The notes under the pieces were generated by a model. It saw only the letters and a program-made list of their open reading frames with translations, ran no database searches and was not told the origin of the DNA. From NCBI GenBank assembly GCA_048939245.1, contig JBHLPR010000014.1, positions 1 through 44,041 of the forward strand: a stretch of 44,041 nt of DNA. The letters are read 5' to 3'. A program made the translations under genes and the position numbers. Below are positions 23,069 through 35,327 of this stretch, in pieces; position 1 is the stretch's first letter; every line of letters begins with the position of its first letter. Origin of the DNA: Promethearchaeota archaeon (GTDB taxonomy: Archaea; Asgardarchaeota; Hermodarchaeia; Hermodarchaeales; Hermodarchaeaceae).

Positions 23069-24274
23069 ATGGCCAAAACACCCACAACCATGACCATCCC
23101 CATCGGTCCCCAACACCCCGCACTCAAAGAACCCGAAAACTTCACCCTCACCGTCGACGGAGAAATCGTCGTCGACGTCGCACCCCGAATCGGTTACGTC
23201 CATCGGGGGATCGAAAAAGCGTTTGAAAGTCGAAGTTATAGTCAAAACGTCTATCTCGCGGAACGTATTTGTGGCATCTGCTCGCAATCCCACACCACTT
23301 GTTATGTGCAAGCTGTCGAGGAGATCCTCGATTTAGATGTCCCAAAGCGGGGCCTCTACATTCGCGGCATCATGAATGAATTGAACCGGATTCACAGCCA
23401 CATTCTCTGGCTTGGCGTTGCAGGTCACGAAATCGGATGGGACACCCTCTTCCATTATTCATGGCGTGACCGCGAATACAGCCTCGATATCATCGAAGAA
23501 ATCTGTGGAAACCGCGTCAACTACGCCAACAACATCATCGGCGGCGTCCGCCACGATGTCCAAAAAAGCCAAATCCCAGGCATGGTGGAACGCCTCGAAA
23601 AAATCCGCGACCGCATGCACCACTACCTCGACCTAATCCTGAAAGAACAAACCATCCTAGACCGGGCCCTCGGCGTTGGCATCCTCGACACCGAAACCGG
23701 CAAAGCCCTCTGCGCCACCGGCCCCACCGCCCGCGCCTCCGACATCCACTGGGACGTCCGCAACACCCAACCCCGCACCCCCTACCAAGAAAGCGAAAAC
23801 AAACACTGGGAAACCCGCACCTCCGACCTCTGCGACGTCGCCGGCCGCGTCGTCGTCCGCATCCTCGAAACCGTCGACGCCTGCACCTGCTGCATCCACT
23901 GGCTCCAACACCTCCCCCCCGGCGACATCAGCATCCGCGCCCCCCGCCGCGTCCCCCCCGGCCACGCCCTCAGCACCTTCGAAGCCCCCCGCGGCGAAGT
24001 CCTCCACTACGTCGTCAGCAACGGCACCGACAAACCCGAACGCCACAAAGCCCGCGCCCCCACCCTCGGCAACATCCCCAGCGTCGTCGAAATCCTCAAA
24101 GGCGGCAAAATCGCCGACGTACCCATCGCCCTAGCTAGTATAGATCCCTGCTTTTCATGTACTGATAGGATTATTCTCGCGTATCCCGATGGTTCGAAAG
24201 AGGAGAAGCCGTGGGCGTGGTTCCAAGAAAAGAGCCGCGAAGAGAGAGAAAAAGTGAAAGTTTGGCACCGTTAG
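23069..24274 (+). CDS. Group 4 [NiFe]-hydrogenase large subunit (Mbh/Ech/Hyc-like), solitary
   Basis: GPQHP, GYVHRGIEK, L1 motif ERICGICS, EAPRGE, L2 motif DPCFSCTDR plus a C-terminal extension. Confidence 0.92.
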   Translation: MAKTPTTMTIPIGPQHPALKEPENFTLTVDGEIVVDVAPRIGYVHRGIEKAFESRSYSQNVYLAERICGICSQSHTTCYVQAVEEILDLDVPKRGLYIRGIMNELNRIHSHILWLGVAGHEIGWDTLFHYSWRDREYSLDIIEEICGNRVNYANNIIGGVRHDVQKSQIPGMVERLEKIRDRMHHYLDLILKEQTILDRALGVGILDTETGKALCATGPTARASDIHWDVRNTQPRTPYQESENKHWETRTSDLCDVAGRVVVRILETVDACTCCIHWLQHLPPGDISIRAPRRVPPGHALSTFEAPRGEVLHYVVSNGTDKPERHKARAPTLGNIPSVVEILKGGKIADVPIALASIDPCFSCTDRIILAYPDGSKEEKPWAWFQEKSREEREKVKVWHR

Positions 24275-24291
24275 TGATTCAGCCTCTAATC

Positions 24292-26508
24292 CTAGAGTAC
24301 CCTTTCCATTCCTAGATTTGACTTCCCTTTTCGTTCAATTGACTTGAGGGATTTTTTCTTTTGATATTCTTTAATCCATTCAAGAGCCGCTTTTCTTTTC
24401 TCCCCAGAGCTTGGTGGAGTTATGATTGCCCAGCGATAGGTATCATTTTCGGATTTAGTATAGATTTCCCAGATTGCTGATACACGATTGGTTTCATGGA
24501 GAATGATTTTTTTAAAGATCGATGTCATTTGAATGCCTAGGCTTTTGATTAGGTTTTTTTCATCTTCAAGAAGTTCACAAGGATGGTTTTTGATAATTCG
24601 TCTTAATTCCCTGGCTATTTGTTCATCGTTTTGTGTCTTAGCTTGAGACTTTAGTTTATCTAGCCTCCCCTTCAATATTTCCAATCGTTTTCTGGGTTTA
24701 TCATCTCGTATGACTTCATATCTCTCTATACCATACTTCTGGATGAATTTCTTATGTCTATGTGTGATCTTTGGTTGATATCTATACAGCTTGGTTTTGG
24801 GTCCTGCATCGAGTACATGAGCACGTTTGATTCCGAATTTCATTTGCCCATTTCTTTTAACAAAAAACCCATCTTCGGGGACAACTTCAGCAAGATAAGC
24901 AGATTTCACCTCAGACGTACCTTGTTTAATGGTTTGTGGTAAACGAAAATTGGGGCTGAGTAGTTTGTCACCTTTGGGAACACCCCAGTGTTCGAGTAGC
25001 CGACCGACTACTGCTGTTATTGTGAGACGTTTTCGTTTCCCTGCTAGTTCTTCGGTTTTGTAGTCGGTTTCACCGAGTTTGCGGAAGAGTGTTCGGACGT
25101 ATTCGATTCGATCTTCGTCTTTTTCATGATAGGTGAGAACGTGGGTGTTTTTGTTAATGTGGCAGTCGCTGAGGGCGATGGCGATGAGTCGTGCGCGGAG
25201 TTCGTTGAGCTGGTTACCTTCGGGGAAGTGGGGGTTGTGGATGCCGCCGCTGTGTTTGGTGTTGCTGATGCGGCCGATGTGGGTGATGTGGGGTTTGATG
25301 GTGTCGAATGGTTGGTTGGTGACATTGAGGAGGAGATGGAGAGTGTCCCCGTAAAGGTATTGACTGTATTTGGTGGACCAGAGTTCGTAGGGAATGGCGC
25401 GTGGATTGTAGGCTCGATGGCGTGTATGTTCGGTGAGTTGGTCGAGGAGTTGGCCGAGTTGTTGGGTGTTGACGTTGAGGTGGCGTTGTGCGGTGCTGAT
25501 GAGCCGTTCTTTGGTTTTGGGTGTGAGGTAGAGGAGTTCGTGGTGGTAGGTGTTGAGCCAGTGGTCGGGGTGGGTAGTTTTGCGCCATAGGTAGAGGGTG
25601 TCGTGGTCGATGGCGAGGCGGAGTTCTTCGTGGGTTTGGGTGAGGTTGAGGTGGTGGGTGAGGGTGTGTTCGAGGGCGGTTCGGTGATTACGAATGGATT
25701 GAGCGATGGTGCGGAGGTGTTGGGGGCCTCTTTTGTGGTAGGGTTTGAGTTCAGCGATGATGAGCCCTTGGTCTTTGCAGTGGTGGTAAAGGGTTTCGAT
25801 GCAGGAGGCAAGAGCTTCAGGAGTGGGTGTTTTGGGGTGGTCGAGAAGGAATTTGCAGGTGGTGTAGACAAGGGAAGGGTCAAGGATATGTTCTTTGGCT
25901 TCGGGGGGGAAGTGTTGTTCCCAGTGTTGGCGGGCGTGTTCGTGGATGTGGAGGGTGCGTTCGAGGTGGGGTTCTTTGATGTGTTGGTGCCAGTCGCGGA
26001 GGCGCCCGGTGGGGATGCCGGTGATGGTTGCGAGGGCGGTGTAGGTGGTGTTGGTGAGGCGGCCGTCGTGGCGGGCGGCTTGGAGGGTGCGGTGCCAGAG
26101 AGCATGGGTGTAGGCGTGGGGGAAGGAGGGGCGTGATGCGAGGTAGGGGTGGCGGTGGAGGTCGTGTTCGAGGCTTTGCCAGGCGGTGCGTCCATAGGTG
26201 TCGAGGAGATGTTGGGCTTCGGGGGTGGTAGCAAGGGTGGTGCGGAGGGTGGTCCAGTCGTTTATCGGATGAGTGGGGGGCATGGGTGGTTCAATAGGTG
26301 TCTGTTGAGTGGGGCTTTTATCCTCCTCAATTGGGGCGGGAGTGGTGTTGCCAGTGCTGTATTTGACTGCAGGTAGTTTGGAAATTTTGGCTAGCAGGGA
26401 GGGCACCTCTCGCAGGTGTCGCGAATTTGGGTCCTTTAAATGCGTTTTGGCTCTCTTTAAGGATGAGTGGGTTCTCTCTTGGCTTACCCACTTTTCCTCA
26501 TCTCTCAA
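24292..26508 (-). CDS. Large protein with putative HTH and two degenerate LAGLIDADG-like motifs
   Basis: ARLIAIALSDCHI and AYLAEVVPEDGFF ~100 aa apart with a typical intervening LLEHWGVPKG.K...LP; N-terminal YTALATITGIPTGRLRDW is HTH-like; start codon uncertain. Confidence 0.6.
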   Translation of the reverse strand: MRDEEKWVSQERTHSSLKRAKTHLKDPNSRHLREVPSLLAKISKLPAVKYSTGNTTPAPIEEDKSPTQQTPIEPPMPPTHPINDWTTLRTTLATTPEAQHLLDTYGRTAWQSLEHDLHRHPYLASRPSFPHAYTHALWHRTLQAARHDGRLTNTTYTALATITGIPTGRLRDWHQHIKEPHLERTLHIHEHARQHWEQHFPPEAKEHILDPSLVYTTCKFLLDHPKTPTPEALASCIETLYHHCKDQGLIIAELKPYHKRGPQHLRTIAQSIRNHRTALEHTLTHHLNLTQTHEELRLAIDHDTLYLWRKTTHPDHWLNTYHHELLYLTPKTKERLISTAQRHLNVNTQQLGQLLDQLTEHTRHRAYNPRAIPYELWSTKYSQYLYGDTLHLLLNVTNQPFDTIKPHITHIGRISNTKHSGGIHNPHFPEGNQLNELRARLIAIALSDCHINKNTHVLTYHEKDEDRIEYVRTLFRKLGETDYKTEELAGKRKRLTITAVVGRLLEHWGVPKGDKLLSPNFRLPQTIKQGTSEVKSAYLAEVVPEDGFFVKRNGQMKFGIKRAHVLDAGPKTKLYRYQPKITHRHKKFIQKYGIERYEVIRDDKPRKRLEILKGRLDKLKSQAKTQNDEQIARELRRIIKNHPCELLEDEKNLIKSLGIQMTSIFKKIILHETNRVSAIWEIYTKSENDTYRWAIITPPSSGEKRKAALEWIKEYQKKKSLKSIERKGKSNLGMERVL

Positions 26509-26546
26509 GAGCTACGCTGACACTTGTGGTTGCTGCTGAGAGGAAT

Positions 26547-27263
26547 CTATCCGTATGAAAAGCTCATTGCAGCAACGCGTGTACCAATAAGGTTCATGTA
26601 TCTCATATATTCGCAGGTCCCTTCCACCGACCGCCAATACATCTGTGGCACCTCATAGAGCGTAGCTTGGGGGAAGAAGGCTTGTGTCAATTCCTTCAGT
26701 CGCTGGAGGTCAGCGGAATCGAATCCCCACATGAGAATGGGCGTGTTAAAGGACGTTTTAAGATCCTCTACTAGTTTGAATGAAATAGTCTTGAAGGCAG
26801 CCACAACTCGTGGCTTAAAACTAAATTTATGTTGTAAATACAGGAACGTTTCTTCGGTAACCGACGGGGTCTTGCCCGTACCATAGTGCTCACGGTACTC
26901 ATCGAGCACAGTATTATCTACTAAAATTGGCGAATGCAACTTGTATGGAACAATAACATCAATGAGCAGCTTATCTTGGAGAACGCCTCCAACCAGATCA
27001 AGAACTTCTTTGAAGGCATTATAGGGGATGGTAAAAAATACAATATCCGCCTTCCCCGCGGCGCCACCATTGGAAAGCCCTTGAATGGTGAGATTTCCAG
27101 GCTTCGTTTTCAGTTTTGTTTCCAACTGGGAAGCAGTTCTTTTCGCCTTTTGGGCATCCCGTGATCCCACTAACGTGGGGTATCCTGCAAAGATGGACCG
27201 TAGGGCCAGTGCTTGCCCTTCGCGTCCTGTACCACCGATGATTGCTACTGTTGGCTTTTTCAT
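26547..27263 (-). CDS. F420-dependent NADP oxidoreductase (NpdG/FNO-like)
   Basis: VAIIGGTGREGQALA, VGSRDAQKA, ADIVFFTIPY, VVAAFKTIS; ATG at 27263. Confidence 0.8.
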   Translation of the reverse strand: MKKPTVAIIGGTGREGQALALRSIFAGYPTLVGSRDAQKAKRTASQLETKLKTKPGNLTIQGLSNGGAAGKADIVFFTIPYNAFKEVLDLVGGVLQDKLLIDVIVPYKLHSPILVDNTVLDEYREHYGTGKTPSVTEETFLYLQHKFSFKPRVVAAFKTISFKLVEDLKTSFNTPILMWGFDSADLQRLKELTQAFFPQATLYEVPQMYWRSVEGTCEYMRYMNLIGTRVAAMSFSYG

Positions 27264-27424
27264 AGTAAATCCTATCCTATTCGTGTGTTTGTCAGGCTGT
27301 GGTAGACACCATATTTTAAATTTACATTTTATTATTTGTATTAAATTATTTACTTTATAGAAGATATTAGCAAACATCCACGAGCCCCCCCCCAGGTTTT
27401 GCAAGGCGATGTTGTTGGAATGTG

Positions 27425-27960
27425 TTAGGATTGGACAATATCAAGACAGTGTGTGGGTCAGCGATGGACACAAGCATTACAATTGACACAGTGCTGGGGG
27501 CAAATTAGGTCTACTTTGCGTCTTGTAGGATCTAGCTGATAGACATTCATTGGACACACTTGTACACACATGCCACATCCAATGCATTGTGTCACATCTA
27601 GGGTAATTCGTCCATAGGGTTGAAGAGGATATTTGCCGGTGGAGAAGGGCATCTACGAATGCCCTCGCTTGTAGAAAAATTGACCCAAGTCGCTGGGCAA
27701 GATTGGGATCATTCCATTTAAATCCACACCCAAGATAAGCACCACAACAATCGTCATGAAAAGCTCCCATAGTATTCCGAAAAGACTCCCCATCGCATAG
27801 AAGGCGACGAGAGAGATCACAACGATTGACCAAATCCCGTCAACCAATGTTTTTCTGAAGCCAGATCTACTTGGCAGATAGGGGACAAGAAGATAGGAAC
27901 CACAGGTGAGCAACCATATGCAGGCTAAGGTTGTGAGGAGACGGGAAGGCGCGAAGATTG
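27425..27960 (-). pseudogene. Membrane plus 2x[4Fe-4S] ferredoxin gene remnant (resembles the C-terminus of fused HgcAB-like proteins)
   Basis: Single frame: TM segments, VDLNGMIP, in-frame TAG (27653-55), CIGCGMCVQVCP, CVNCNACVHR-TGA-PTHCL; 5' part lost at a poly-G run. Confidence 0.65.
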
Positions 27961-27990
27961 AGGGGGGAGGGGGGGGACCGAAATGTTTTT

Positions 27991-28026
27991 ATGTCAAGTA
28001 GACTTTACGTTAAGTAGACTTGACAT
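27991..28026. promoter_or_regulatory. Tandem palindromic operator upstream of the XRE regulator
   Basis: GTCAAGTAGACTTTAC followed by GTTAAGTAGACTTGAC; the whole element is bounded by ATGTCAAGT...ACTTGACAT. Confidence 0.7.
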
Positions 28027-28046
28027 GACCGTGGGGAAGGTTACCG

Positions 28047-28295
28047 GTGATAACGAATCGCTTACGAGAAGTACGCGAACGCCGACTGCGTGAGGCTTCT
28101 GACCCGTCGGTCTGGACCCAGGAGGGGCTGGCGTTGCGTGTGGGTATCAGCCGACAGACGATCATCGCTATTGAGAAGGGCGTCTACAATCCATCGCTGG
28201 ACCTGGCCTTCAAACTGGCTCGCGCGTTTGATTTGCAGATAGAAGAGATTTTCACATTTGAAAGTGAGGAAGGGAGTGAAGAAGCTGAAGCCTAG
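28047..28295 (+). CDS. XRE/Cro-C1 HTH transcriptional regulator
   Basis: WTQEGLALRVGISRQTIIAIEKGVYNPSLDLAFKLARAF. Confidence 0.92.
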   Translation: MITNRLREVRERRLREASDPSVWTQEGLALRVGISRQTIIAIEKGVYNPSLDLAFKLARAFDLQIEEIFTFESEEGSEEAEA

Positions 28296-28734
28296 TTACC
28301 GGTATGGAATCCTGTTGGTGGCAGGGATTGCGAATGTGGGAGTTGGTATGTATGCGTTTGTAATGTTTGCGCGTCGATTCCTAGTTGGTAAGATTGTGGA
28401 AACTGACGGAGCCTTTGTAGGCCTCGGATGCGTAGCAACGTTGGTGGGCGTATTTCTGGTATATCGCATGTTGCCCGCGTTATTGAGGATTCGGCGCGGT
28501 GAACCAGCAGAAATTTGGGTTGACGAGCGAATGCAACGCATCTTGTATCGGGCGGGGTTTTTCGCCTTTTCTTTCCTACTTGTGGCGCTATTAATGCTCG
28601 TCTCAATGACTCTGGCCCTGTTGGCCTGGGATATCCGATTAACATGGATGCAGTTGGTCCCCTTGATCTTAGGTGTCTGGATTGCGAGTTTGTTTATTTT
28701 TGCAGTGACTATAGTCTATCTCTATACGAAATAG
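28258..28734 (+). CDS. DUF2178-like membrane protein co-transcribed with the XRE regulator
   Basis: Four TM helices; DERMQRILYRAG motif. Confidence 0.65.
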   Translation: MKVRKGVKKLKPSYRYGILLVAGIANVGVGMYAFVMFARRFLVGKIVETDGAFVGLGCVATLVGVFLVYRMLPALLRIRRGEPAEIWVDERMQRILYRAGFFAFSFLLVALLMLVSMTLALLAWDIRLTWMQLVPLILGVWIASLFIFAVTIVYLYTK

Positions 28735-28744
28735 AGAACAAGAA

Positions 28745-28842
28745 AACAGGAGCATCTTAATGTACTCCAAGGAAGACTCTGGGCGTTGTTCCAGTAAAAT
28801 AGTGGGGAAGAACTGGAACGCGTCAAGGCGTGGCGGCGTTAG
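28745..28842 (+). repeat. Degenerate copy 1 of the hydrogenase 3' end
   Basis: NRSILMYSKED / WALFQ*NSGEELERVKAWRR* versus DRIILAYPDGSKEEKPWAWFQEKSREEREKVKVWHR*; about 13 nt deleted. Confidence 0.8.
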
Positions 28843-28928
28843 ATAGCGTGATTTGTTTACCTACTTAGGGATCTTACTTCGGTTGTTTTGTGTGAGAGTT
28901 TGAAAGACTGTGGTAAATGCTAGTGTGG

Positions 28929-29702
28929 CTAGTGATCTGTTTCGCGGGTTTTCCATTGTTTTCCTTGGAGAGTAGGTAGACAGCGAAAGGTGGGATAGAG
29001 AAGTATGGCCCACGTGATTGTGATGAATCCAAGAAGCAGTTCGGCTATGTTGAAGGTCAACTCATTCATTACGATGAAGGGAGTAATCAGGTAGTACCAG
29101 GGGATGAAAAAGAAGATTACGGCGAGGATGATTCGGAAGAGTCCGATGAGGATCCATCCCATAAAGAATTCTCTATGAGGTCGCCAGTATGTGATGAGGG
29201 CTAAGATAAGAGCGGGAATTTCGACTAAGAAGACGGCGATGGGGAAGTAGGAGGGGACAAGGTGGGAGTGGCTGCAGCCGTAAGGACCGCCGAACACCGT
29301 TACACGAAAGTACCAGATAAGTGCGTAGGCAATAACGAGGAGAGCTGAAAGGGTTTGGAAGAGTGCCCAGATTTTTAGGCTAAGTGAGCGGTGGATACGG
29401 GACAGGTATGAAGCATCCTTTTGCACTTGTTTGATGAAGTAGAAAAGGAGAGTGCTCCCAGTGGTAATGAGAAAAACGCCAATTCCAAGGGCCCACAGCA
29501 TCACGGAAAGGAAAGTATACTTCTGATGGCAGTCCATGGAGCTCCAGAAACCACCGATATTTTGGGGGATGAACCTGGTGAAAGCAAAAGTACTGCCAAC
29601 TAAGAGGAAAATGCCGAATAATAGCATGCCTAGGATTACCAAGAATTCAAAGGTTCCGACAAGTTGTCGCTGCCTTAGCTTATCAAGTTCTATATTCAGC
29701 AC
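28929..29702 (-). CDS. Hypothetical multi-pass membrane protein
   Basis: 257-aa ORF with about six hydrophobic helices. Confidence 0.65.
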   Translation of the reverse strand: MLNIELDKLRQRQLVGTFEFLVILGMLLFGIFLLVGSTFAFTRFIPQNIGGFWSSMDCHQKYTFLSVMLWALGIGVFLITTGSTLLFYFIKQVQKDASYLSRIHRSLSLKIWALFQTLSALLVIAYALIWYFRVTVFGGPYGCSHSHLVPSYFPIAVFLVEIPALILALITYWRPHREFFMGWILIGLFRIILAVIFFFIPWYYLITPFIVMNELTFNIAELLLGFITITWAILLYPTFRCLPTLQGKQWKTRETDH

Positions 29703-29784
29703 CCATCAATTCTTGATCGATATTATAACGAACGCTTTATATTTAACTCTTTTTACGTTAAAGGCAGTAAATTCAGTTCTAAAA

Positions 29785-29910
29785 AACTTTTCAGCCATTG
29801 ATTGAAGTATTTTATCCCACCCGAATGGAAGTCAGGAAGAGAAGCATTGTGCAGGATTCCAGTAGAAGAGCTGCGAAGAACGAGATTACATGAAGGCGTG
29901 GCGGCGCTAG
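29785..29910 (+). repeat. Degenerate copy 2 of the hydrogenase 3' end
   Basis: NFSAID*SILSHPNGSQEEKHCAGFQ*KSCEERDYMKAWRR*; gap-free collinear with 24149-24274. Confidence 0.85.
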
Positions 29911-30082
29911 TCTATTAAGGCTTCAGTCGGGTTTTGACAATATTAGCCGTTGGTTACATTGCCTTACATTGGAGTTGAATTATCCAGGGTTCTATTGGGC
30001 TTGAGTTTTTCTGAGGGACCACTTTCTGAAGATTTATGTAGAGCTGACGTGAAAGTAGGGTTGTGAAGGGAGATAGCGAGAA

Positions 30083-31438
30083 GTGGAGTACGAATTGAAA
30101 AACCGAAAAACATGGATTATCGTAGTTGGGTTTCTCATTGTAGTGGCTGTTGGAGTTGGAGGGTTTCAGCAACGGATGGACTTTGTCGGTGTGGATGCTT
30201 CATCGGTTCCGTGGGCCGGTCCTCGACCCTTTTGGTCGACGATTATCGATTATAATGATCAAGGTGTTTTGTTATATCCTGAGAGGGTAATTCAAACAGC
30301 AGAGGGAGGGTATGCAGTATTATGTCGAATCACAAGCCAAAATGGGACCATATGGCTGGGTCAATTTGATGCCCAGGGCATGCTCTTATGGGAACATATC
30401 TACAAAATTGACTATCGCTGGGGAGCAGGCGCACCCAGAGGCTTTTATCAGTGTGCTGATGGAGGCTTTGCCGTTATCGGCATCACACCGAACATCCAAG
30501 GAGATTGGACACATTTTCTCATTCGGACAGAAGCTGATGGAACTCTGCGATGGAAGATGATGTTTCCTCTACTCTCGAGTAATATTGATCAGCATGGTTC
30601 TTCGGTCATCGAATGCACGGACGGAGGATTCATCATGACTGGCTGGAGAGAGTCAGAGGTGTTTCTTCACCGAATAAATCCGGACGGAGAGTATCTTTGG
30701 CATCAAGTCTACCCAGCATCTGGACAAAAAGACGTGGATTTAGTCCAATGCGCGGATACAGGTTTTGCTCTAGCAGGAAAGAATTCCACCGACTACATCT
30801 TTTTAGCTCGCATTAATTCGACAGGAGGAGTTCTTTGGAAACAGAGTTATACCTTTCCAGGTGCTGTCCAAGGTCTTCGTTTATCAGGCATGAAATTAAC
30901 CAATGATAATGGATTTATTCTGTATGGGCAAACTTATGGTCAAGGTCCGAATTCCGATGCCTTGGATATCTATCTTCTTAGAACAGATATGAATGGCTCA
31001 GAGCAGTGGAATTATACGTATGGCGGTCCGCTTTCTGATATTGTGAATGATGTCGTTCAATGTACGGATGAAGGCTTTGTGTTAATTGGCAGTACTTGGC
31101 GAAGCGGTTTGGATTTACGGGATATTTGGCTGGTTCGTACGAATGCAACCGGAATCCAAAACTGGAATTGCACCTATCCTGATCACCTTCCAAAAGGAAC
31201 GTGGGGTGTCGGCATCCTAGAGCCTGAACCCGAAGTGCTTGTGATTTGTGCAGATATTTGGAAATCGTCTTCTAGTCTTTGGTTGTTTTCAATTCCTGAT
31301 GTTTCGCCACCTGATCCAAATCTTCCCTTTCTAGGAATCCCACCTGAGCTAATACCTGCCATTGCTATTGGGCTCGCAGTAGTGGTGATAATAGTTATTT
31401 TCGCGTTTATGTGGATTCTACGTCAACGTAGAATGTAA
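30083..31438 (+). CDS. Membrane-anchored extracellular beta-propeller repeat protein
   Basis: N-terminal signal/TM; repeats of the type QC.DGGF...G and RT...G...W...Y; C-terminal TM anchor. Confidence 0.75.
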   Translation: MEYELKNRKTWIIVVGFLIVVAVGVGGFQQRMDFVGVDASSVPWAGPRPFWSTIIDYNDQGVLLYPERVIQTAEGGYAVLCRITSQNGTIWLGQFDAQGMLLWEHIYKIDYRWGAGAPRGFYQCADGGFAVIGITPNIQGDWTHFLIRTEADGTLRWKMMFPLLSSNIDQHGSSVIECTDGGFIMTGWRESEVFLHRINPDGEYLWHQVYPASGQKDVDLVQCADTGFALAGKNSTDYIFLARINSTGGVLWKQSYTFPGAVQGLRLSGMKLTNDNGFILYGQTYGQGPNSDALDIYLLRTDMNGSEQWNYTYGGPLSDIVNDVVQCTDEGFVLIGSTWRSGLDLRDIWLVRTNATGIQNWNCTYPDHLPKGTWGVGILEPEPEVLVICADIWKSSSSLWLFSIPDVSPPDPNLPFLGIPPELIPAIAIGLAVVVIIVIFAFMWILRQRRM

Positions 31439-31451
31439 CCCCGAACTATCA

Positions 31452-31562
31452 GACAGGATTATCTTAGCATATCCTGATGAGTCGAAAGAGGTGAAGCCGT
31501 TGGCGGGGTTCCAGGAGAAGGATCGGGAAGAGTGGCAAAGCGTGAAGGCGTGGCGGCGGTAG
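31452..31562 (+). repeat. Degenerate copy 3 of the hydrogenase 3' end
   Basis: DRIILAYPDESKEVKPLAGFQEKDREEWQSVKAWRR*; 26/36 residues identical and gap-free versus 24164-24274. Confidence 0.92.
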
Positions 31563-31732
31563 CTAGTTCTCTACGTCCCGCGTTGGAGACCGCATGAGAA
31601 GCCAGTGCGAGTTCATTGTAGGTGTTGTCTTGGTGGTTTGCGCGATTCTAGCTGACCCAGAATGTAATTGTAGGTGCTCTTAGGAGAGTAGAGAAGGATC
31701 TGTGTTCTGGCAATTGCTTTCAAGATAATGGG

Positions 31733-32203
31733 TCAGGCCTTGAGGTGGGTGGCGATGTGTTTTCCGAAATCGGTGCATTTGGAGAATTCGCCTTCTGTGA
31801 TGGGTCCTTTCATTCCGTCAACTTGTATTGATAGGCCGGGTGTTATGAGTTTTAGTGTGGGAGCTTTTTCGCGTATTCGGGTCTCCATTTTCTTGACGGA
31901 TTTTTCGAAGTCTTCGCCTAGATAGGTGTCGAATACAGCTGCCCATTTTGCTTTCAAGTCGAGTTTGCCAAGTTTATCAATGAGCTTATTGATGCCCCTA
32001 GCGGGTCCTCCAAAATGTGTGGGGGTCCCAATCAATATTGCATCATAATCGACCATCTTTTTGGGATCGGTGTTCTTGACATCACTGATAGTAGTTTCTA
32101 TTCCCTCGACTTCGTTTAGTCCCTCCGCGATTTTTTCGGCTACCAGCTTTGTGTTGCCATACTTTGTATCATACACGACGAGAACCGTTACCATTGCGTT
32201 CAC
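31733..32203 (-). CDS. Flavodoxin-family protein
   Basis: VVYDTKYGNTKLVAEKI, YDAILIGTPTHFGG, AVFDTY. Confidence 0.9.
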   Translation of the reverse strand: MNAMVTVLVVYDTKYGNTKLVAEKIAEGLNEVEGIETTISDVKNTDPKKMVDYDAILIGTPTHFGGPARGINKLIDKLGKLDLKAKWAAVFDTYLGEDFEKSVKKMETRIREKAPTLKLITPGLSIQVDGMKGPITEGEFSKCTDFGKHIATHLKA

Positions 32204-32327
32204 CAGTCATGAAGGTTATTTTCTGAGTTTTTATGATTTACGGGAGAAACTACTATTAGTACAGGACTTTTCTGGTCTTAATCGTCATAAGTCTCAAGGA
32301 ACTAGAGAACAATTTGTACGATGTACC

Positions 32328-32453
32328 TGTTTTTCGTGTAGGGATTGTGTCATCTTAGCTTATCCTGAAGGTTCGAATGAGGAGAAGGCATGGGCGTGTT
32401 TTCAGGAGAAGAGTCGGGATGAGCGTGAATGTTTGTAGGTGTGGCGTCGATAA
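32328..32453 (+). repeat. Degenerate copy 4 of the hydrogenase 3' end
   Basis: CFSCRDCVILAYPEGSNEEKAWACFQEKSRDERECL*VWRR*; 29/41 residues identical and gap-free versus 24149-24274. Confidence 0.93.
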
Positions 32454-32558
32454 GTGTCTCTGGAAGAGAATAGTATGACAGTTTTGGGTTAGTAAAGGGT
32501 ATTATGAGTTAAGTTGGGAGTTGAAATCAAGGATCCTTAAGCATGCTACATCCGTTTT

Positions 32559-33563
32559 TCAAAAGGAATATCGTCTGTATCTTGAGCTAGAGCTTATGGG
32601 TTTTCCAGTTGCCATTTCGAAACTTCGAGAACCGAGTTTGGCTACCCACGACCATATCGTTAGAAAGGCATCTTGGGTGGGGGTTTCTGTTGTGTTTGAG
32701 CAGATACTGGTTTTTGGATTTTTCAAGATGCGTTTGATTTGATTAGAGTGGATGGGTGTGGTCTGTTGGTGAAACCAGTTGTCAATGAGGTGGAATCGAT
32801 CGTGTGTTCGGGGCATGGTTCGGTTCGGGTTATTATAGGGCTGCATGGAAGGAGAGTTGAAGTGGTTGGTGATTACGCCAATTCCGTCTTGTGGATAATG
32901 AACGGCGATATCTTGTTGGGCGGCTTCAATTATGGCAATGTTACCGTGGGCATCCGCCACGAGAAAATTCTTGGTCCAAAAATGCGGGAATTTAAGCAGT
33001 AGTGTTACTGCTTCGTCAACAGATGAACAGTGGTCAAGGACGGCACGAACTGGGATATGATCCCACACGCCGGGTGCATCGGTGTAGATGCCATGGACAC
33101 CTGCCACCGCGATAGCTACACCTGCTTCATTAAGTCCATCCTCTCGTCCGACTAGTAAATCAAAACAACAGCCCATATGAGCATAGTGCTTCTTCGGGTA
33201 GGTCCGATAGAGTGTGAAGGCGTGAAATGCGGGGGTTGCATCATAATTGCGGGCAAAGATGGTGCTTCGGTCGGAAGTATATTGACTGGAAATTGCACAC
33301 ACTGTACAACTTGGACTCCTACCCAGGGTGAGCGTATGAGTTCGTACTATCTCATAATCGAGCTGGCTTCCGTCTGCAATTCCTTGGATCTCATCGATGA
33401 GCTCGGGAACGATAGGCTCAATTTGTTCTTCAACTCTCGCTGCAAACTGGATAGCTGTATCTTCTAATCGTGGAAATTTAGTTCCTTGGCTCTTGAGAAG
33501 CCTTCCGTATTGCTTGCCAATCTCATAGTGAGTACCACGAAGTGTAACATTGAACATAGCCAT
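32559..33563 (-). CDS. C45-family (AAT-like) Ntn-hydrolase/peptidase
   Basis: GTHYEIGKQYG, EIQGIADG, S|CT nucleophile site, ARNYD, DGLNEAG, TNHF. Confidence 0.85.
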   Translation of the reverse strand: MAMFNVTLRGTHYEIGKQYGRLLKSQGTKFPRLEDTAIQFAARVEEQIEPIVPELIDEIQGIADGSQLDYEIVRTHTLTLGRSPSCTVCAISSQYTSDRSTIFARNYDATPAFHAFTLYRTYPKKHYAHMGCCFDLLVGREDGLNEAGVAIAVAGVHGIYTDAPGVWDHIPVRAVLDHCSSVDEAVTLLLKFPHFWTKNFLVADAHGNIAIIEAAQQDIAVHYPQDGIGVITNHFNSPSMQPYNNPNRTMPRTHDRFHLIDNWFHQQTTPIHSNQIKRILKNPKTSICSNTTETPTQDAFLTIWSWVAKLGSRSFEMATGKPISSSSRYRRYSF

Positions 33564-33830
33564 GACTCTCAACGAATTGCAGCCGAACAGGGTTGTCCAA
33601 TAAGGAGAAATCATCGGAGTTTTAAGTTTTAGCTGTGTAAAAAAACAATTCTTGAATTTTTTTAACACTTTTGTATGTAATTGTGACACTTTTGGCAGAA
33701 ACCAATAGTTATTGAATAATCCAGATTTTCAAAGTGGGCATTGCCTTTTCAAATTGCTAATTCATTGCTTTTAGTGCTAGTATTTGCGAAAAGCACTTAG
33801 CGAGTTTTCACGTTAAACGAATTGATTGAA

Positions 33831-34232
33831 ATGAAGAAGACAAGCGAAGTAGCTGATAAAGACTGGAAGAAGAAACTGTCTAAAGAAGAGTATCGCGTGT
33901 TACGCGAGAAGGGTACGGAGCGTCCTTTCACGGGGAAGTATTGGAAGCACAAGGAGAAGGGTACATACAAGTGTGCGGGGTGTGGTGTGGAACTTTTTTC
34001 TTCGGAGGCGAAATTTGAGTCGGGGAGTGGGTGGCCAAGTTTTTATGAGGCGTTGGATAAGGATAAAATCGAGGAGAAAGTGGATCTGTCTCATGGGATG
34101 CGTCGGATAGAGGTTGTGTGCAAGAATTGTGGGGGGCATCTAGGCCATGTGTTTGATGATGGGCCGAAGGATAAGACCGGTTGCCGCTATTGTATTAATT
34201 CTGTTGCACTTCATTTTGAAAAGGAGGAGTAG
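33831..34232 (+). CDS. msrB: Peptide-methionine (R)-S-oxide reductase
   Basis: [35 protein letters not shown]. Confidence 0.96.
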
Positions 34233-34487: not shown

Positions 34488-35267
34488 ATGAGCGGGAGGG
34501 ATATGCTCAAGACGCAATATTTCGAGAAGTATCGTCTTCATATGCTCATCGGGTCATATTTCCTGTTTGCAGGATGTTATTATTTTCTTTGCCAGTTGAG
34601 CTTTATCATCGGATGGGGTGATGTCCCGTTTGGGCCATTAATGGAACTCCTGAGCCTCATCGGATTCAACTACTGGTACCCAATGGTTTGGTTTCGATGG
34701 TTTGTGGGTCTCATCCCACTATTGGTCATGACTTCAATGAATATGTGGCTGCTAGCCAAGATCCTATATGTTCCGACTCCAAGACTTTCACGGCTTTTAG
34801 TCACATGTTTGCTAAGTGTTGTTATCGCCTTACTGTTCATTGTGGTTGCAGGCTACATCTTCTATGCAGGTCCGAACGTCCTATTCTGGCACCTTTCTTT
34901 CGTCATCCCAGTTCTTTGGCAAGGCTGGGCTGCACTTTTTTTAATTGGTTGGATGATTTTTCCTCTTGTACTGAGCTATCTTCTGCTTCAAGCCTCCACT
35001 GTCACAGAGTTCAATAAGGAATTCATCTCAAAGTTACTTCTGAACCCTCTATTCTGGATCGGTATTATTTTGGCATTTGTTATTTTTTGGATTTCCTTAC
35101 TTGGTCTCGGACAGACGTTATTTCATGTCGTCAACGATACAACCTTAATTCTTCTGTTCCATACGCTTCCAGTTACAAGTATTTACATTGCTTTGATTAT
35201 TCCTCTGTTTCCCCTAGTTGTGATTGGTAGTGGCAGCTATAGTTTCCCCTCATTAAATGTGAGATAG
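34488..35267 (+). CDS. Hypothetical multi-pass membrane protein
   Basis: 259 aa with about six hydrophobic helices. Confidence 0.6.
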   Translation: MSGRDMLKTQYFEKYRLHMLIGSYFLFAGCYYFLCQLSFIIGWGDVPFGPLMELLSLIGFNYWYPMVWFRWFVGLIPLLVMTSMNMWLLAKILYVPTPRLSRLLVTCLLSVVIALLFIVVAGYIFYAGPNVLFWHLSFVIPVLWQGWAALFLIGWMIFPLVLSYLLLQASTVTEFNKEFISKLLLNPLFWIGIILAFVIFWISLLGLGQTLFHVVNDTTLILLFHTLPVTSIYIALIIPLFPLVVIGSGSYSFPSLNVR

Positions 35268-35327
35268 GTTCTATGTTAGAACCCACTAGTGATTATTCGA
35301 TCTCGATTTAACCACCCGAAATCATAA

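Follow-up and report, generated by a model that had tools for sequence, protein, structure and literature searches.

Introduction

In the Allomyces atp6 element, a free-standing homing endonuclease gene brings a replacement 3' end to the gene that it targets, and the old end is left downstream. GC-biased gene conversion (gBGC) at the recombination hotspots of eukaryotes enriches G and C symmetrically, and a change from C/A to G/T along a strand has the polarity of a replication origin with a G/T-rich leading strand. The locus described here, the 3' end of a [NiFe]-hydrogenase large-subunit gene, lies in a 44,041-nucleotide stretch of DNA from Promethearchaeota archaeon (contig JBHLPR010000014.1 of assembly GCA_048939245.1; the window). 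The forward (+) strand of the window is C/A-rich over the hydrogenase gene and turns G/T-rich beyond it. We lean towards reading this skew as the mark of a recurrent, endonuclease-initiated break-repair or gene-conversion hotspot with a strand-asymmetric outcome. No description of such mirror skews was found in the literature.

The sequence of target gene, new tail, endonuclease gene and displaced pseudo-copy of the old tail is shared with the Allomyces element; unlike that element, the archaeal locus has five tail copies with cargo genes between them, as well as the strand skew. The resemblance to gBGC lies in a local shift of composition at putative break hotspots, with GC content raised at third codon positions, and a transmission bias of that kind needs no raised mutation rate. 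However, the enrichment here is not a strand-symmetric one of G + C, as C is gained on one strand and G on the other and A is preferred over G at twofold-degenerate sites (27 to 0). Compared with the skew switches of bacterial and archaeal origins (oriC) and of mammalian N-domains, the polarity and the abrupt rise of G/T on the + strand are alike, whereas the scale of 0.5-3 kb, the dozens of sites inside genes, the absence of an Orc1/Cdc6 or origin recognition box context and the far greater amplitude are not.

The flanks of mobile introns and homing endonucleases carry co-conversion tracts and a raised density of single-nucleotide polymorphisms near insertion sites (Repar & Warnecke 2017, Genetics, PMC5378118). 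The archaeal skew is similarly centred on homing sites and decays with distance, as in endonuclease break repair by co-conversion or mutagenic repair, and this form was found at the PolB and MCM intein sites as well as at the hydrogenase locus. It differs from the published effect, for which no strand asymmetry was reported, in being a near-saturating mirror skew of amino against keto bases at synonymous sites, and also in its presence at empty sites, its conservation across genera and its location in archaeal chromosomes. A role in shaping strand-specific mutation spectra has been suggested for non-canonical mismatch repair by NucS/EndoMS (Ishino et al. 2016, PMC4838380; Takemoto et al. 2018, PMC6159521). 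The blind spot of this enzyme (A/C, A/A and C/C mismatches) has the same amino-versus-keto asymmetry as the skew, and its gene is present in the genome studied here. In contrast, no link to homing sites has been described in the NucS/EndoMS reports, a large excess of C over A is not predicted, and other Asgard families that have only NucS lack the pattern at the loci examined.

Strand bias around the hydrogenase 3' end

The window is contig C74 of a 2.52-Mb metagenome-assembled genome (MAG; G000) in 122 contigs. Its + strand is C/A-rich over the hydrogenase gene, G/T-rich at 25.0-26.3 kb and then moderately G-rich to about 36 kb, a zone that takes in non-coding DNA and the + strand gene msrB. 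GC content, with a background of 0.44, rises to 0.53-0.65 in the skewed arms. At 23501-24000 it is 0.65, with a GC skew of -0.35 and an AT skew of +0.32, and the windows across 25001-26500 have a GC content of 0.53-0.60, GC skews of +0.45 to +0.59 and AT skews of -0.33 to -0.38. GC skew is above zero in 22 of the 23 windows between 25.0 and 36.5 kb (about zero at 26501-27000 and -0.03 at 34501-35000), and cumulative skew outside 25-37 kb is flat. More G than C is found in eight of the nine stretches of intergenic DNA at 27.8-36.3 kb; the ninth is 63 bp long (35265-35327).

Codon usage in the left arm is close to saturation. From 23.48 to 24.13 kb (hydrogenase codons 150-352), 102 of 109 fourfold-degenerate sites are C (C102/A3/G3/T1), twofold pyrimidine sites are C39/T1 and twofold purine sites A27/G0. 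A second, shorter recoded patch covers 23069-23190, and codons 45-140 between the two patches (23190-23480) have ordinary usage. The arms in the window begin at start codons. The left arm has a sharp end at codon 357 (nt 24134), just a few codons 5' of the DPCFSC motif and at the start of the similarity among duplicated copies of the hydrogenase tail, which match from residues 355-364 on. Neither tRNA or RNA genes as an integration target nor origin-type repeats were found at this centre, where the sole repeats are the tail copies, and the search for an inverted repeat or hairpin between the two arms gave chance compositional matches only.

The core of the right arm is coded on the - strand, with fourfold sites of C163/A26/T25/G6 and C/A fractions of 0.69, 0.64 and 0.85 at codon positions 1, 2 and 3; the shift at positions 1 and 2 gives the protein a His/Thr/Pro/Gln-rich N-terminal part. 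The two strongest blocks belong to genes that converge, and in both the coding strand is the C/A-rich one, so that position and coding strand are inseparable there. Beyond them, msrB on the + strand has fourfold sites of G25/T17/A7/C5 and twofold pyrimidine sites of T26/C8, the opposite of the hydrogenase. The bias is positional, as is seen from msrB and the intergenic DNA in the window and more clearly from the relatives. An earlier, sequence-only reading of the window had described a mirror-image skew at the hydrogenase 3' end, C/A to the left and G/T to the right, which followed position rather than coding strand; composition and codon counts confirm the mirror, and the positional character holds on both kinds of evidence just given. 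The features of the locus are listed in Table 1.

Table 1. Coordinates of the hydrogenase locus and its skewed arms in the window
Feature	Position	Strand	Basis
[NiFe]-hydrogenase large subunit, group-4-type, NuoD-like	23069..24274	+	Pfam Complex1_49kDa 7e-54, NiFeSe_Hases 6e-18
Left arm, C/A-rich coding strand	23480..24133	+	95-100% C/A at codon position 3
Switch centre	24127..24146		Change-point log-likelihood ratio 31.8; C/A fraction 0.99 left, 0.39 right
Functional hydrogenase 3' tail, unbiased codons	24134..24274	+	Keto fraction 0.53; fourfold C6/A2/T5/G5
Convergent open reading frame, listed 738 aa, free-standing LAGLIDADG-fold protein	24292..26508	-	Fold prediction
Predicted LAGLIDADG homing-endonuclease-fold domain, residues 425-738 (314 residues)	24295..25236	-	AlphaFold2 predicted local distance difference test 84, predicted template modelling score 0.82
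Right-arm core, N-terminal two-thirds of the frame, C/A-rich on its own strand	25011..26331	-	+ strand G 0.43, T 0.29
Partial tail copy (pseudo-tail)	28782..28846	+	Direct-repeat family D2
Tail copy closing a gene cassette	29800..29914	+	Repeat families D1/D2; tblastn to residues 355-401
Tail copy with G-ending codons	31452..31566	+	Repeat and tblastn matches
Last tail copy, keto fraction 0.67	32343..32457	+	G.34, T.33, C.12
Putative displaced (relic) right arm, + strand G/T-rich whichever the gene direction	32562..34232		Codon counts

The convergent reading frame and the tail array

The hydrogenase carries the metal-binding motifs RICGICS near its N-terminus and DPCFSCTDR near its C-terminus, and orthologues with 83-95% identity are found in 11 genomes of the same genus. 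The open reading frame (ORF) that converges on it has homologues of 650-680 aa, so its true start is probably near 26.3 kb. The N-terminal domain of the 738-aa ORF is conserved and has no family assignment. No Pfam match at E<=0.01 and no match in a search of PDB sequences were obtained for the ORF, and it has no significant sequence similarity to the free-standing LAGLIDADG ORF on contig C18; NCBIfam gave a weak match (E 0.0016), to the endonuclease portion of a protein that contains an intein. The modelled structure of residues 425-738 is matched by Foldseek to I-Tsp061I (1.5e-7), PI-SceI and I-DmoI, with E of 1e-7 to 1e-4 and a probability of 1.00, and also to WhiA, a LAGLIDADG regulator that is not a nuclease. 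LAGLIDADG motifs are present as LIAIALSD and YLAEVVPEDG, and the acidic residues D24 and E121 are invariant among 11 homologues. By its predicted structure, the ORF adjoining the switch has a double LAGLIDADG fold and is a candidate homing endonuclease. Site-specific cleavage and mobility are predicted for it from its link to the hydrogenase 3' end, the tail duplications and its patchy presence in relatives. All homologues come from MAGs labelled Promethearchaeota or Hodarchaeota, the labels of close relatives among the Asgard archaea, and the ORF converges on the same hydrogenase in all three homologue loci with enough flank (G003, L097 and L099, the last at a contig end).

Most of the LAGLIDADG domain (24295-25010) is of ordinary composition. 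C/A arms occupy the 5' part of four LAGLIDADG genes, namely the PolD intein (C81:41.6 kb), the free-standing ORFs at C18:161-1792 and C117:1-1491 and the ORF of the window (~25010), and break off sharply inside the endonuclease domain, at a point that falls approximately between its two motifs. A centre seems to lie within the endonuclease genes themselves.

Between 24134 and 32457, five copies of the hydrogenase 3' end lie on the + strand, each closing at a stop codon. The intervening cassettes hold one unrelated gene or a few: an F420-oxidoreductase-like gene together with the LAGLIDADG ORF, membrane proteins, a flavodoxin and a 451-aa predicted membrane-anchored protein. Tail arrays of this kind also lie downstream of the orthologue in six relatives (G011, G008, G013, G012, G001 and G003). 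Repeated insertion at one site seems to have built up a gene-capture array here. The functional tail of the hydrogenase presumably came in with the endonuclease cassette, and the last copy of the array would then be the oldest, displaced one, marking the ancestral junction. Within the G/T-rich block beyond it, the + strand has G55/C22 at the fourfold sites of an AAT-family gene on the - strand and G25/C5 at those of msrB on the + strand, and in L097 and L099 msrB is likewise G/T-coded and near the same hydrogenase. This block (32.5-34.2 kb) and the tail copies with G-ending codons may be former right arms that were pushed outward by later cassette insertions.

Skew islands across the genome

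A genome-wide scan counted as biased any segment of 40 codons or more in which 85% or more of the third positions were one-sided. The scan found 148, of which 48 are long, compared with a binomial expectation of about 5 and with 77 expected when third positions are shuffled within genes. The lead idea of the sequence-only reading, a chromosomal replication origin, had been tied to the question of whether such spikes recur genome-wide, and it is not supported by this count: dozens of like centres occur in 2.5 Mb, they lie inside genes, and their arms are 0.5-3 kb long. Islands are found in other hydrogenases, actin, RadA, small GTPases, S19, Spt5, PolB, PolD, MCM, porB, the V-ATPase and LAGLIDADG ORFs. 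The most biased genes are not those of the translation apparatus. Intergenic DNA near islands is weakly biased over the genome as a whole (0.54) and more clearly so in the right arm of the window and in the related genome G017.

The polarity of the islands is fixed. Codon bias flips to G/T-ending codons within single genes such as porB, PolB, GTPases and SPFH, and with 80-codon windows along coding sequences and a threshold of 0.4, abrupt intragenic drops from C/A to G/T outnumber the reverse by 13 to 0; windows of 30 codons were too noisy for polarity (7 sharp flips versus 5), which the longer windows resolved. All of the roughly ten adjacent island pairs of opposite sign that lie less than 3.5 kb apart read C/A then G/T, an order that is invariant under reverse complementation. 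When aligned on their change points the profiles form a sawtooth, with a slow rise of the C/A fraction (about 0.6 to 0.8-0.95 in some 300 codons) and then a fall over only a few codons, to about 0.5 ahead of a mobile insert and to 0.24-0.35 otherwise. Arm strength fades over 0.5-3 kb.

Change points sit in highly conserved motifs, including the Walker A motif of MCM (an intein site, at which the MCM arm stops), the pol-b intein site of PolB, the junction between YGN and TGMQRS in porB, the G3 motif of GTPases, the P-loop of RFC, RadA, and a point just before the C-terminal DPCxxC of two different hydrogenases. No common DNA motif was seen by eye at 16 centres. Six of the ten LAGLIDADG loci of the genome are no more than 1.5 kb from a long island, compared with 5.3% of random sites (P = 4e-6).

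Relatives and lineage range

The same skew is found in related genomes, with the C/A arm of the hydrogenase present in all 11 orthologues from the same genus or family. The rare non-C sites in this arm differ between species about as independent draws would, which indicates that each lineage maintains the bias itself and that the bias is ongoing; singleton substitutions among 10 hydrogenase orthologues are only departures from saturated C and so carry no information on the changes that drive the bias. In genus g2 the entire hydrogenase gene is recoded, and the extent of recoding in the 5' half differs among species. In G017 the flip is clean and at the same point, with the hydrogenase C/A-coded until its tail and the tail G/T-coded, and both arms run at least 1.5 kb further through convergent, divergent and co-oriented genes and intergenic DNA. 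The arms likewise cross genes of either orientation in G018 and G008; in G008 the roughly 6 kb that follow the hydrogenase contain no endonuclease ORF.

In the family (17 genomes), PolB flips from C/A to G/T exactly at the empty pol-b intein site in nine alleles that lack the intein, clearly so in L051, L055 and L057 and more weakly in L053. Intein-bearing alleles have the C/A arm in the N-extein and an intein of mixed composition. Only families f1 and f18 are biased at the PolB site. In f18 (L074-L079), some 500 codons of PolB are C/A-coded and the change to G/T comes about 30 codons past the YGDTDS motif, so the f18 centre differs from that of the window's family. The pattern is present in two of the sampled Asgard families; hydrogenase orthologues in five other families are unbiased, and family f2 has a PolB intein and no skew. 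The window's family has NucS, and no canonical MutS1 was found in it. NucS and PolY occur also in families that lack the pattern, and the state of having NucS without MutS1 is found in unbiased families too, which makes it at most a necessary condition.

Break repair at homing sites as a proposed source of the skew

The anatomy of the arms, with their fixed polarity, positional bias, coincidence with intein and endonuclease sites and restriction to certain lineages, is what the hotspot reading has to explain; breaks would be the trigger, and the base bias would arise in the events that follow them. The free-standing LAGLIDADG gene, which converges on the hydrogenase, would cut cassette-free alleles near the conserved DPCxxC codons. 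Repair would then copy in a replacement tail together with the endonuclease gene and shift the old tail downstream, and repetition of such insertions would account for the array of five tail copies with intervening cassettes. Every round of repair or heteroduplex formation would have a strand-asymmetric outcome that declines with distance: the strand reading 5' to 3' toward the site, which is kept as a 3' tail after resection, would become C/A-rich, and the strand reading away from the site, which is resected and resynthesised, would become G/T-rich. Purifying selection would confine the effect mainly to synonymous sites and, in the endonuclease N-domain, which is less constrained, let it also show in amino-acid composition. 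The G/T patches out to msrB would be older right arms moved by later cassette insertions. The sequence-only reading had offered, next to an origin, a recurrent recombination start at a gene-capture hotspot with error-prone synthesis. The recombination start is partly supported, in that it fits the fixed polarity, the intein and endonuclease sites and the LAGLIDADG-fold gene; error-prone synthesis would be one possible cause of the bias.

Two candidate chemistries may be considered. G.T-type misinsertion might occur in the resynthesised or displaced nascent strand. Alternatively, conversion itself might be biased, as NucS/EndoMS would ignore A/C, A/A and C/C mismatches, such that C or A alleles on the invading strand escape correction and G or T alleles are converted. 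EndoMS cuts G/T, G/G and T/T well and A/C, A/A and C/C hardly (PMC4838380). We put forward only tentatively, and with some doubt, that in at least two Asgard families of Promethearchaeota/Hodarchaeota type the NucS/EndoMS blind spot acts at sequence-defined sites of frequent breakage, many of them homing-endonuclease targets, as a strand-asymmetric conversion drive that turns synonymous sites toward C/A on the invading strand. Deamination of 3' single-stranded tails was rejected as a source of the bias because it predicts a G/T-rich tail strand, which is the opposite polarity, and the earlier caveat that deamination cannot yield near-total C at fourfold sites stands.

Several observations weigh against break repair as the explanation. 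A break, a cleavage event or a cassette-free allele at the hydrogenase locus was not directly observed. Most of the approximately 30 centres have no nearby endonuclease gene in this genome, and a porB intein was found in none of the relatives. An intein alone is insufficient for the skew, given the unbiased PolB of f2, and the NucS-only families f2, f3, f7 and f12 are unbiased at the loci examined. C/A lies on the coding strand in 124 of the 148 strong segments (5:1) and the G/T-coded arms reach only about 65-85%, which points to an added coding-strand or selection component. The 0.9 kb to the right of the centre, comprising the tail and the endonuclease C-domain, is unbiased where a simple model predicts otherwise, and within the endonuclease domain the right arm is cut off sharply, as are those in C81, C18 and C117. 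Neither candidate chemistry accounts for the large excess of C over A at fourfold sites, and the published preference of EndoMS, by which T/C is cleaved more than A/G, would favour A over C.

Alternative explanations

A replication start, whether a bidirectional chromosomal origin or regular break-induced, recombination-dependent replication with leading/lagging asymmetry, is unlikely. The C/A-to-G/T polarity is that of an archaeal origin, the right arm trails off weakly over about 10 kb, and outward synthesis primed at breaks would give the same polarity as the hotspot reading. However, centres number dozens in 2.5 Mb and fall within ORFs, in conserved motifs, rather than at one or a few sites with replichore-scale skew, and the centre is coding DNA and not an intergenic AT-rich unwinding region with repeats. 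The strong bias fades over about 1 kb, the left arm in this genome ends after a 1.2-kb gene, and the centre has no origin-type repeats or RNA genes. As had been remarked earlier of the window, no orc1/cdc6 gene adjoins the switch or lies elsewhere on its contig; Cdc6_C matches are confined to three genes, on C81, C22 and C91. A preference of the coding strand, by which hydrogenases, actin, RadA and GTPases would favour C/A-ending codons for expression and the mirror would be two convergent genes, has a low probability as well. It agrees with the C/A coding of both strong blocks in the window and, over the genome, of 84% of the strong segments. Roughly half of the segments remain after shuffling within genes and so represent whole biased genes, and a preprint attributes archaeal skews to gene orientation (10.1101/2023.11.15.567178). 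It is largely refuted by the intragenic flips to G/T in porB, PolB, GTPases and SPFH, since translational bias uses one uniform codon set regardless of position, which is not what was found. Furthermore, G/T coding is seen in msrB and, in relatives, in genes that diverge from the hydrogenase or share its orientation, the intergenic DNA of the arms is skewed, positions 1 and 2 of the endonuclease ORF are shifted, the translation apparatus is not the most biased, and orthologues in other families are unbiased.

Conversion from an RNA template is very unlikely. Here break-primed cDNA made by an error-prone reverse transcriptase or polymerase with G.U/G.T wobble would turn the upstream sense strand toward C/A, a scheme that suits the excess of sense-strand C/A arms, their abrupt 3' end and gradual 5' fading, and their beginning at start codons. 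Arms nevertheless cross divergent promoters and oppositely oriented genes in G017 and G018, past transcript boundaries, and equally strong downstream arms are G/T-coded in PolB and porB. Mosaic ancestry or a chimeric assembly, in which the codon dialects of different donors or strains are joined at conserved motifs, is the least probable of these explanations, with hardly any chance of being right. The sharp boundaries of the patches, the ordinary composition of the functional tail and endonuclease C-domain and the many islands at contig ends are as such joining would have them. Against it, MAGs from two genera that were assembled independently share the flip, its polarity and its codon, and no genome that is fully G/T-coded or otherwise of a donor type was seen; both polarities would be expected, yet the count is 13 to 0.

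Implications

If the hotspot reading is true, genome sequence alone maps recurrent breaks or gene conversion, and the direction of repair, in an uncultured relative of eukaryotes. Selfish endonucleases would then reshape the codon usage, and even the protein composition, of the hydrogenase, PolB, MCM, RadA and actin over kilobases, and these lineages would offer a natural test bed for the interplay of NucS-type mismatch repair with recombination. The prediction of origins from skew, the inference of expression or horizontal gene transfer from codons and dating by synonymous divergence (dS) would all be misleading in them. A conversion drive, if true, would be a prokaryotic, strand-polar counterpart of gBGC at eukaryotic hotspots and would provide a map of active recombination hotspots from sequence.

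Other islands of the genome

Many islands coincide with a contig end or are at most a few hundred bases away from one (C102, C105, C117, C116, C13, C18 and C90, and also C81, C52, C68, C115, C39 and C25). Assembly breaks in or beside islands suggest strain polymorphism or coverage problems there. The V-ATPase operon (C92:23700-28627) has a gradual transition from C/A to G/T over the multi-repeat c/K-subunit gene, with the upstream subunit-I gene C/A-coded and the downstream gene strongly G/T-coded. An architecture like that of the hydrogenase locus is found at C68:2373-4714, where an endonuclease-like ORF converges on an actin gene, the core is unbiased and the outer parts are C/A-coded; the left arm at this locus holds a G/T-coded gene on the - strand (671-1144).

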